Below are positions 22,317-22,643 of a DNA stretch of 48,006 nt, one piece after another. Within the stretch, counting starts at the first letter, position 1, and each line of letters begins with the position of its first letter. The stretch lies in the IMG/VR virus record IMGVR_UViG_2671180673_000006; one strand, written 5' to 3'. The stretch is from a virus (lineage: Duplodnaviria > Heunggongvirae > Uroviricota > Caudoviricetes). Below the pieces are notes generated by a model. It was not told the DNA's origin and searched no databases. It worked only from the letters and a program-made list of their open reading frames with translations. A program made the translations under genes and the position numbers.

Positions 22317-22643
22317 ATGAAAAGACGCCTTTTACTACTTTTTCTGTTATCTGTCCTGGCAGTGGGATGCTCGCAGCAAAAAGCTGATGAGCCCCGGCAA
22401 TTAGTGACGGTGTATCCACGATATCCGGAATATGCTGCAGCAAATTATATCAAGGGGCTGGTTGAGGTTAAGTTCGATATTGGTGCTGATGGGACTGTGA
22501 CACGGATCGTTTTTCTCCGCTCAGAGCCTCATAATTTGTTTCGTGATGAAGTGGTGAAGGCCATGGCGAAATGGCGATTTGAAAAGAATCGCCCCTGTCA
22601 GGGAGTGAAGAGACAATTTATCTTTACGCCGTCACGTCCTTGA
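22317..22643 (+). CDS. lipoprotein made of a TonB C-terminal-like domain
   Basis: 108 aa from ATG 22317; signal peptide with lipobox MKRRLLLLFLLSVLAVGC; remainder (...YPRYPEYAAANYIKGLVEVKFDIGADGTVTRIVFLRSEPHNLFRDEVVKAMAKWRFE...) follows the TonB_C pattern. Confidence 0.55.
   Translation: MKRRLLLLFLLSVLAVGCSQQKADEPRQLVTVYPRYPEYAAANYIKGLVEVKFDIGADGTVTRIVFLRSEPHNLFRDEVVKAMAKWRFEKNRPCQGVKRQFIFTPSRP

Follow-up and report, generated by a model that had tools for sequence, protein, structure and literature searches.

The 48,006-nt sequence IMGVR_UViG_2671180673_000006 from IMG/VR, referred to below at its full length as the window, is a lambdoid prophage (Caudoviricetes) that carries, between the spanin genes Rz/Rz1 and cos, a small gene for a protein of 108 amino acids (aa) built from a lipoprotein signal, a short linker and one TonB C-terminal (TonB_C) domain. 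This product belongs to the TonB_C domain proteins and is not a TonB, and the pattern of codon change between its alleles points to a gene under purifying selection and not to a fragment. Its best-supported mode of action is that of a decoy, i.e. non-productive binding of TonB boxes, to which we assign a probability of roughly 45%. The observation as such is not new, as GenBank and RefSeq already annotate the domain and the gene has been published as a moron; the novelty resides in the mechanism.

Domain architecture and fold

The initial annotation had described the gene product as a lipoprotein consisting solely of a TonB_C-like domain, and both parts of this description hold. The N-terminus (MKRRLLLLFLLSVLAVGC) comprises a basic n-region, a hydrophobic core of 12 residues and the lipobox L-A-V-G-C18 (segmented as MKRR-LLLLFLLSV-LAVGC, then SQQ), with Ser at position +2. 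Cys18 and Gly17 are invariant across both alleles of the gene and all full-length relatives, and the +2 residue is Ser, Thr or Ala and never Asp. Lipidation is therefore predicted from the lipobox, and sorting to the outer membrane from the lipobox together with the E. coli +2 rule. A lipobox scan of the window returned only two convincing open reading frames (ORFs), the TonB_C lipoprotein and the o-spanin Rz1. Beyond the signal peptide, the lipid-bearing Cys18, the linker (residues 19-25) and the domain (residues 26-105), the protein has no further part, and its mature form is only 91 residues long.

Resemblance to TonB is evident at the level of profiles, sequence and fold. The Pfam profile TonB_C (PF03544) matched at 49.2 bits against a cutoff of 24.6 (E 7.3e-13) and TIGR01352 at 47.4 bits against 27.1, and a phmmer search of the PDB placed the C-terminal domain (CTD) of E. 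coli TonB on top (E 1.4e-14), the best matches all being TonB C-terminal domains. The alignment is gapless, pairing lipoprotein residues 24-103 with TonB 151-230 (residue n corresponds to TonB n+127), and 32 of the 80 positions are identical (40%). An AlphaFold2 model of the mature protein reached a predicted local distance difference test (pLDDT) score of 91.2, with helices and strands in TonB order and an intact C-terminal edge β-strand; confidence is low at the linker (pLDDT <50 for the first 4 residues, mean of 62 for the first 10-residue block). Foldseek gave a template modelling (TM) score of 0.88 to 1u07 and root-mean-square deviations (rmsd) of 0.9-1.2 Å over TonB structures, including 1.0 Å to BtuB-bound TonB (2gsk_B) and 0.9 Å to FhuA-bound TonB (2grx_C). 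All significant structural matches are TonB domains, and TolA domain III is distantly related in fold (Foldseek ranks 18-25). The TonB pattern that had initially been read from the letters alone, with a profile search and a structure prediction suggested as checks, was thus recovered by both.

Compared with the CTD of E. coli TonB (P02929, residues 150-239; 1u07, 1xx3, 2gsk, 2grx), the lipoprotein shares the fold, the YP motif, the aromatic residues and the edge strand: Y163, P164, F180, G186, F202, W213 and F230 are kept and Y215 is replaced by F. It ends at the equivalent of TonB 235, 4 residues short of the end of TonB. Unlike TonB, it has a lipoprotein signal in place of the transmembrane anchor, no spacer and no ExbB/ExbD coupling, and R158, Q160 and R166 are substituted. 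The equivalog models of the TonB energy transducer (NF008080-NF008084) accordingly scored 44.8-69.2 bits against cutoffs of 265-448 and aligned only over model positions ~150-240, because both the N-terminal inner-membrane anchor and the proline-rich spacer are absent from the lipoprotein. Energy reaches TonB through its N-terminal anchor and ExbB/ExbD, and with neither anchor nor spacer the lipoprotein cannot transduce it.

Alleles, relatives and selection

Counted at ≥95% identity, the window type of the gene (allele 1) is present in 1225 of 5426 complete E. coli genomes, Nissle 1917 (locus tag CIW80_RS24205) among them, and a second allele with 72% protein and 73% DNA identity to the first is found in a further 415. 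Some genomes harbour both alleles and some up to 4 copies of allele 2, adding up to more than 1,600 intact copies. The window gene is 100% identical to CPT_21_73 of phage 21 and to RefSeq WP_000830178.1; the identical gene is recorded in phage 21, ev017, Perceval and several ECOR-derived phages, with 99.7% identity to the window gene for the Perceval copy of strain LF82. Between the two alleles, the ratio of non-synonymous to synonymous divergence (dN/dS) is 0.12-0.13 at a saturated dS of about 1.4, with zero indels and equal length.

These data bear directly on the idea that the gene is a functionless, decaying remnant of a captured tonB, as is implied by public names such as 'TonB fragment' (the Perceval record) and 'partial tonB-like membrane protein' and by the loss of two thirds of TonB. 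A remnant would hardly be expected to possess its own start codon, Shine-Dalgarno sequence, signal peptide and lipobox, to persist intact at this frequency under such a low dN/dS, and to recur with the same architecture in other genera, and with only 40% identity to the host TonB there was no recent capture. Selection and conservation together effectively refute this reading, which we regard as highly improbable. Other public annotations are closer to the mark, with 'TonB C-terminal domain protein' in phage 21 and 'TonB family protein' for WP_000830178.1. A literature search found no functional study of the protein, and the sole paper found to mention the gene is the transcriptome of LF82 morons (PMC9928086).

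An exhaustive HMMER search yielded 2795 TonB_C relatives, the best of which include short proteins of 107-133 aa that repeat the signal-lipobox-domain layout. Within the domain, the phage proteins are on average 47% (41-55%) identical to such TonB_C lipoproteins vs 39.5% to genuine TonB domains. The closest relatives outside E. coli prophages are chromosomal TonB_C-only lipoproteins of Klebsiella, Raoultella, Pantoea and Erwinia, annotated as 'TonB family protein', which share the lipobox, the short linker, the single domain and the early C-terminus. Those of Klebsiella and Raoultella differ in occupying a fixed chromosomal locus (lacZ-lacI-spy-like-glycine-zipper-[gene]-yagU) without phage genes nearby. 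In a comparison of five such loci (L083-L087, gene at about 5995-6333), the orthologue was the fastest-evolving gene, with 67-77% identity between species vs 84-96% for lacI, spy-like and yagU. A second copy in Raoultella planticola lies elsewhere, again away from phage genes, with GAF-EAL, GNAT and RelE neighbours.

Relatives are also borne by other prophages. They were found in 41 IMG/VR loci, 38-47% identical to the window protein, and in two of these that were inspected the gene follows a holin-endolysin-spanin cassette or precedes the terminase genes, with lysis and terminase genes that are not homologous to those of the window. Members are likewise held by 15 GenBank phage records, e.g. 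Klebsiella phage ST13-OXA48phi12.4 and Stx1a phages. We count this recurrence next to unrelated lysis and terminase genes in favour of a decoy.

Lysogen expression and a possible decoy mechanism

The gene is transcribed in the lysogen. Misson et al. 2023 list LF82_160, the 'TonB fragment' of Perceval, as a moron expressed 8-fold over the prophage background in LB (PMC9928086), and in the supplementary table of that study its level is 5.0-6.6 log2 fragments per kilobase per million (fpkm) in 10 of 10 samples, next to 2.3-4.3 for the adjacent Rz and small terminase genes. As it lies above both neighbours in all samples, it is transcribed autonomously. The response to macrophages is flat (log2 fold change of 0.26, i.e. 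unchanged), as opposed to a rise of 7.1 log2 units for bor (PMC9928086). Variable presence among related phages, an accessory position between Rz and cos, and lysogen transcription mark the gene as a moron (an autonomously expressed prophage cargo gene).

Both alleles are preceded by a conserved extended -10-like element, TGT(C/T)AGAAT, which is proposed as the promoter of the gene, with a putative TGTCAGAAT start. The allele-2 version scored promoter-like, with a TG preceding the -10, and a scan of the + strand of the window for the sigma-70 consensus found no site. As the gene points the same way as the late operon, late read-through is likely too. No Fur-box-like site was found upstream of the gene in a scan of the window, and regulation by Fur was rejected. 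The best matches of the window are found near cos, ~1 kb downstream of the gene, where they face an ORF on the minus strand.

In the mechanism that we favour, a tether of ~8 residues would hold a TonB CTD close beneath TonB-dependent transporters, on their periplasmic side, where it might bind, by β-strand addition, their exposed TonB-box strands and possibly also those of incoming group-B colicins. In TonB itself, the TonB box docks as a β-strand on the three-stranded sheet of the CTD, with the region near residue 160 involved and genetically tied to recognition of the box (PMC9249621). In favour of such docking, allele 2 carries Leu at the Q160 position, and Q160L is the classical TonB suppressor of TonB-box mutations (PMC11658791). 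Docking by the lipoprotein would occur without pulling, for want of an inner-membrane anchor, ExbB/ExbD contact and proline-rich spacer, and the outcome would be a non-productive competitor of the host TonB. Expressed from the prophage in the lysogenic state as a moron, such a decoy would likely reduce the entry of T1/phi80-type phages, group-B colicins and some microcins. The block would probably be partial or receptor-selective instead of a global shutdown.

This scheme has a laboratory precedent and a natural analogy. According to a preprint that cites Howard, Herrmann, Stratilo & Braun 2001 (PMID 11566987; via bioRxiv 10.1101/2020.01.05.895219), the unanchored periplasmic TonB portions 33-239, 103-239 and 122-239 inhibit the TonB system, an effect attributed to blocked interaction between TonB and transporters. 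Those constructs were laboratory-made, soluble, over-expressed, at least 118 residues long and derived from TonB itself, whereas the prophage protein is natural, diverged, predicted to be lipid-anchored and 91 residues long. Llp of T5 is a lipoprotein of the inner leaflet of the outer membrane that binds the periplasmic face of FhuA, and both Llp and Cor of phi80/N15/HK022-type prophages are likewise small phage lipoproteins that act on the periplasmic side of FhuA and exclude phages. They are unrelated to the TonB_C lipoprotein in fold and sequence: the latter has no match to a Cor/Llp PHROG, nor any match at E<1e-3 in the viral structure library BFVD, the latter being indirect evidence as the presence of Llp and Cor in it was unchecked. 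Llp also works differently, binding the plug and barrel surface of FhuA and acting allosterically, not by mimicking TonB. According to the Llp paper, the binding of TonB and that of Llp obstruct each other. A domain that would dock without pulling, TonB fragments that inhibit and a lipoprotein that reaches FhuA are the reasons for ranking the decoy first.

Several observations weigh against it. Positions that contact the TonB box or plug are altered (R158 to T/K, Q160 to Y/L, R166 to Y), so the protein may bind something other than a canonical TonB box. LF82 transcribes the gene at a modest level that is the same in LB culture and inside macrophages, whereas transporters reach very high abundance when derepressed. 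Among complete E. coli genomes, about a quarter or more have the gene, including Nissle 1917, whose fitness relies on TonB-dependent iron uptake, which argues against a strong general block. The stable non-phage orthologues of Klebsiella and Raoultella suggest a cellular role that need not be the exclusion of phages or colicins, and no match to the defence models of PADLOC-DB 2.0 was found at E<=0.1.

Some of these points would fit a protein that was borrowed from a chromosomal housekeeping lipoprotein and serves the cell by modulating a single transporter or signalling pathway, without any exclusion. It might dampen or gate a single TonB-dependent transporter, hold a TonB box or a signalling domain, or limit the uptake of toxic ligands. 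The closest non-E. coli relatives, with the same architecture, are nearer than true TonB domains, those of Klebsiella and Raoultella sit in a conserved chromosomal locus, expression in LF82 is steady and modest, and the interface residues have changed, all as such a role would predict. On the other hand, none of the loci examined links the gene to a transporter, sigma or anti-sigma gene, morons for exclusion or fitness are the more typical cargo to be captured again and again by unrelated temperate phages, and the rapid evolution of the Klebsiella/Raoultella orthologue suggests conflict and not housekeeping. We consider a modulator unlikely. The decoy proposed here accords with all findings, as does the idea in the initial annotation that a membrane-anchored TonB mimic could exclude TonB-dependent phages or colicins. 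More tentatively, and with considerable doubt, enterobacterial temperate phages may have repeatedly recruited a lipid-anchored TonB decoy, altered at its interface residues, that selectively uncouples particular transporters from TonB or traps the TonB boxes of incoming colicins.

The iron route encoded by sitABCD is probably TonB-independent. Perceval bears sitABCD (Fe/Mn import) and the NmpC porin as further lysogen-expressed morons (PMC9928086), and the window prophage has no sit operon. One may speculate that Perceval pairs a TonB decoy with a TonB-independent iron route.

Prophage position, neighbouring genes and wider meaning

The window is organised as a lambdoid prophage, with an integrase (75-1361), a lysis cassette (19316-22005) and, from 23603, the terminase, beyond which lie the head, tail, J, Lom and tail-fibre genes; the C-terminus of the J tail tip resembles that of mEp460/Ayreon and shares 53% identity with lambda J. 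Table 1 gives the position of the TonB_C lipoprotein gene, its parts and its surroundings.

Table 1. Coordinates of the TonB_C lipoprotein gene, its segments and adjoining features in the window
Feature	Position	Strand	Remarks
TonB_C-only lipoprotein CDS	22317-22643	+	ATG to TGA, stop included; 108 aa
Candidate extended -10	TG 22289-22290, CAGAAT 22292-22297	+	ahead of TonB_C lipoprotein gene
Shine-Dalgarno AGGA	22307-22310	+	6 nt ahead of TonB_C lipoprotein start
Signal peptide (residues 1-17) and lipid-modified Cys18 (predicted)	22317-22370	+	read from sequence
Lipobox L14-A-V-G-C18	22356-22370	+	within signal region of TonB_C lipoprotein
Linker S19-E25 (SQQKADE), 7 residues	22371-22391	+	between lipid anchor and domain
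TonB C-terminal domain P26-P105 (80 residues)	22392-22631	+	E. coli TonB 153-232; gapless alignment, Foldseek
Edge strand C94-F103	inside TonB_C domain	+	TonB β3, the strand pairing with TonB boxes; model E77-86 (mature numbering)
i-spanin Rz	21547-22005	+	directly upstream of moron module; matches named 'endopeptidase Rz'
o-spanin Rz1 lipoprotein, embedded in Rz	21773-21943		lipobox scan
Accessory ('moron') module, Rz end to cos	22016-23406	.	1.39 kb, megablast
45-aa ORF (CPT_21_72 in phage 21)	22162-22299	+	upstream of TonB_C gene; coding status uncertain

Phage 21, ev017 and Perceval share the moron module at 98.6% (megablast query 517-1907 equals phage 21 41542-42931), and on the right it stops exactly where the phage 21 genome has its right (cos) end, at which cosQ is annotated. 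The module is absent from related phages of the PhiR12 series that share Rz and Nu1. Allele 2 is likewise found between Rz and the terminase, without the small ORFs that flank allele 1, and the TonB_C gene is therefore the conserved cargo.

Position next to the lysis genes has left its mark on annotation. The protein matches PHROG 1267 over its full length (E 5e-43), labelled 'Rz-like spanin' in the category lysis, and as the members of this PHROG are TonB_C lipoproteins, PHROG-based pipelines will mislabel the gene as a spanin. Annotation by position best accounts for the label, given that the lysis cassette already has both Rz and Rz1 and that the gene is expressed while Rz is silent. A spanin was rejected on the same grounds and for the folded TonB domain, which contrasts with an o-spanin, a very short and proline-rich lipoprotein whose gene is embedded in Rz or lies next to it. 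A broader role as a late lysis accessory, tuning the disruption of the outer membrane or preventing the irreversible adsorption of progeny to lysing cells, draws on the PHROG match, on the recurrence of the gene and its distant relatives directly 3' of the lysis cassette, on the same strand and even with non-homologous holins, endolysins and spanins, and on the late read-through expected from this position. Transcription in the lysogen with Rz and endolysin silent, the already complete Rz/Rz1 pair, chromosomal orthologues without lysis genes nearby and the use of the Rz-to-cos interval as a general moron site (e.g. for bor) all speak against it, and we judge such an accessory to be quite improbable.

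The same niche type is occupied by the lambda-type lysogenic-conversion proteins Bor/Iss and Lom of the outer membrane, which are also prophage-expressed envelope proteins but have another fold and presumably another function, and bor is induced in macrophages where the TonB_C gene is not. The gene for the serum-resistance lipoprotein Bor/Iss adjoins the TonB_C gene in phage 21, Nissle 1917 and Perceval, which could hint at an envelope-strengthening factor, anchored in the outer membrane and holding on to peptidoglycan or another periplasmic partner as a tether akin to Pal or Lpp, with a gain in serum or stress resistance. The distant kinship to TolA domain III would agree with this, and Kaserer and colleagues are said to have proposed, in 2008, an affinity of the TonB C-terminus for peptidoglycan. 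However, the lipobox scan of the window found neither bor nor cor, so the two lipoproteins are no obligate pair, and the TonB_C gene does not follow the strong macrophage induction of bor. Moreover, a reach of ~8 residues is short for the peptidoglycan layer, and the sequence is far closer to TonB than to known peptidoglycan-binding modules, making a tether improbable in our opinion.

Upstream of the gene, positions 22033-22136 are identical between the allele types at 94 of 104 sites, compared with 73% identity in the TonB_C coding region. The segment is also ~90% conserved in many Stx phages that are not among the carriers found, and hence it is a general post-Rz segment of lambdoid phages. 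A structured RNA leader or specific regulator was rejected here on account of this wide occurrence, the lack of an Rfam match for 22033-22185 and a fold z-score of only -1.35. A 7-bp inverted repeat (CACCGGG...CCCGGTG) lies right before the start of the 45-aa ORF at 22162. Only the first ~10 codons of this ORF (MVEETGxCxT) are common to the allele-2 loci, where its counterpart would stop after 21 codons, and it has no Pfam or PADLOC match; it could be a short leader peptide or non-coding.

Downstream, a minus-strand ORF of 83 aa (ATG 23258 to stop 23007) has a good Shine-Dalgarno sequence (AGAGG), a Cys-rich tail and a start (MKIRNILAISLATSSFSCLA) that resembles a signal peptide. It is unannotated, has no Pfam or PADLOC match and is intact at 95-100% identity in other loci, and public records annotate a plus-strand 60-aa ORF at this site instead. 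An overlapping ORF of 117 aa (22766-23119) is split in some loci. The two best Fur-box-like matches of the 48-kb window (15/19 at 23358-23376, 14/19 at 23352) lie ~95-120 bp upstream of the 83-aa ORF, just inside cos.

Other cargo in the late region comprises a 653-aa DUF1737-SASA-DUF6645 protein (16730-18691), of a sialate O-acetylesterase type that is often seen in Stx-like prophages, and, inserted between holin and endolysin, a 296-aa DUF1327 protein (19590-20480). A 222-aa S-adenosylmethionine (SAM)-dependent methyltransferase (Methyltransf_12/23/25; 47015-47683, minus strand), downstream of the tail-fibre assembly gene and in opposite orientation, is likely another moron. The stretch from terminase to tail fibre (23893-47830) contains 58 isolated N bases, none near the TonB_C lipoprotein gene, which introduce X residues into the translations of terminase, portal, tail and J and suggest a consensus or masked assembly of polymorphic positions.

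We regard the decoy as a well-founded hypothesis on a known, annotated gene, which would join the phage outer-membrane lipoproteins acting on TonB-dependent transporters. If true, this would be a prophage shield that mimics the energiser of the receptor, whereas Llp and Cor block the receptor itself, and thus a new mechanistic class of receptor-level exclusion through mimicry of the host energy coupler. Roughly a quarter or more of E. coli, Nissle 1917 included, would then carry a low-cost shield against TonB-dependent phages, colicins and microcins, and susceptibility to siderophore-conjugated antibiotics might be altered, also in pathogenic lineages. The protein would further provide a natural compact scaffold for inhibitors of the coupling between TonB and its transporters, a pursued antibacterial target. 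The experiment is simple and the gene very common, which makes a bench test worthwhile, and the spreading mis-annotation as 'Rz-like spanin' would be corrected. Even should the decoy prove wrong, E. coli prophages would still hold a very common, selected and lysogen-expressed envelope protein with chromosomal orthologues in Klebsiella.

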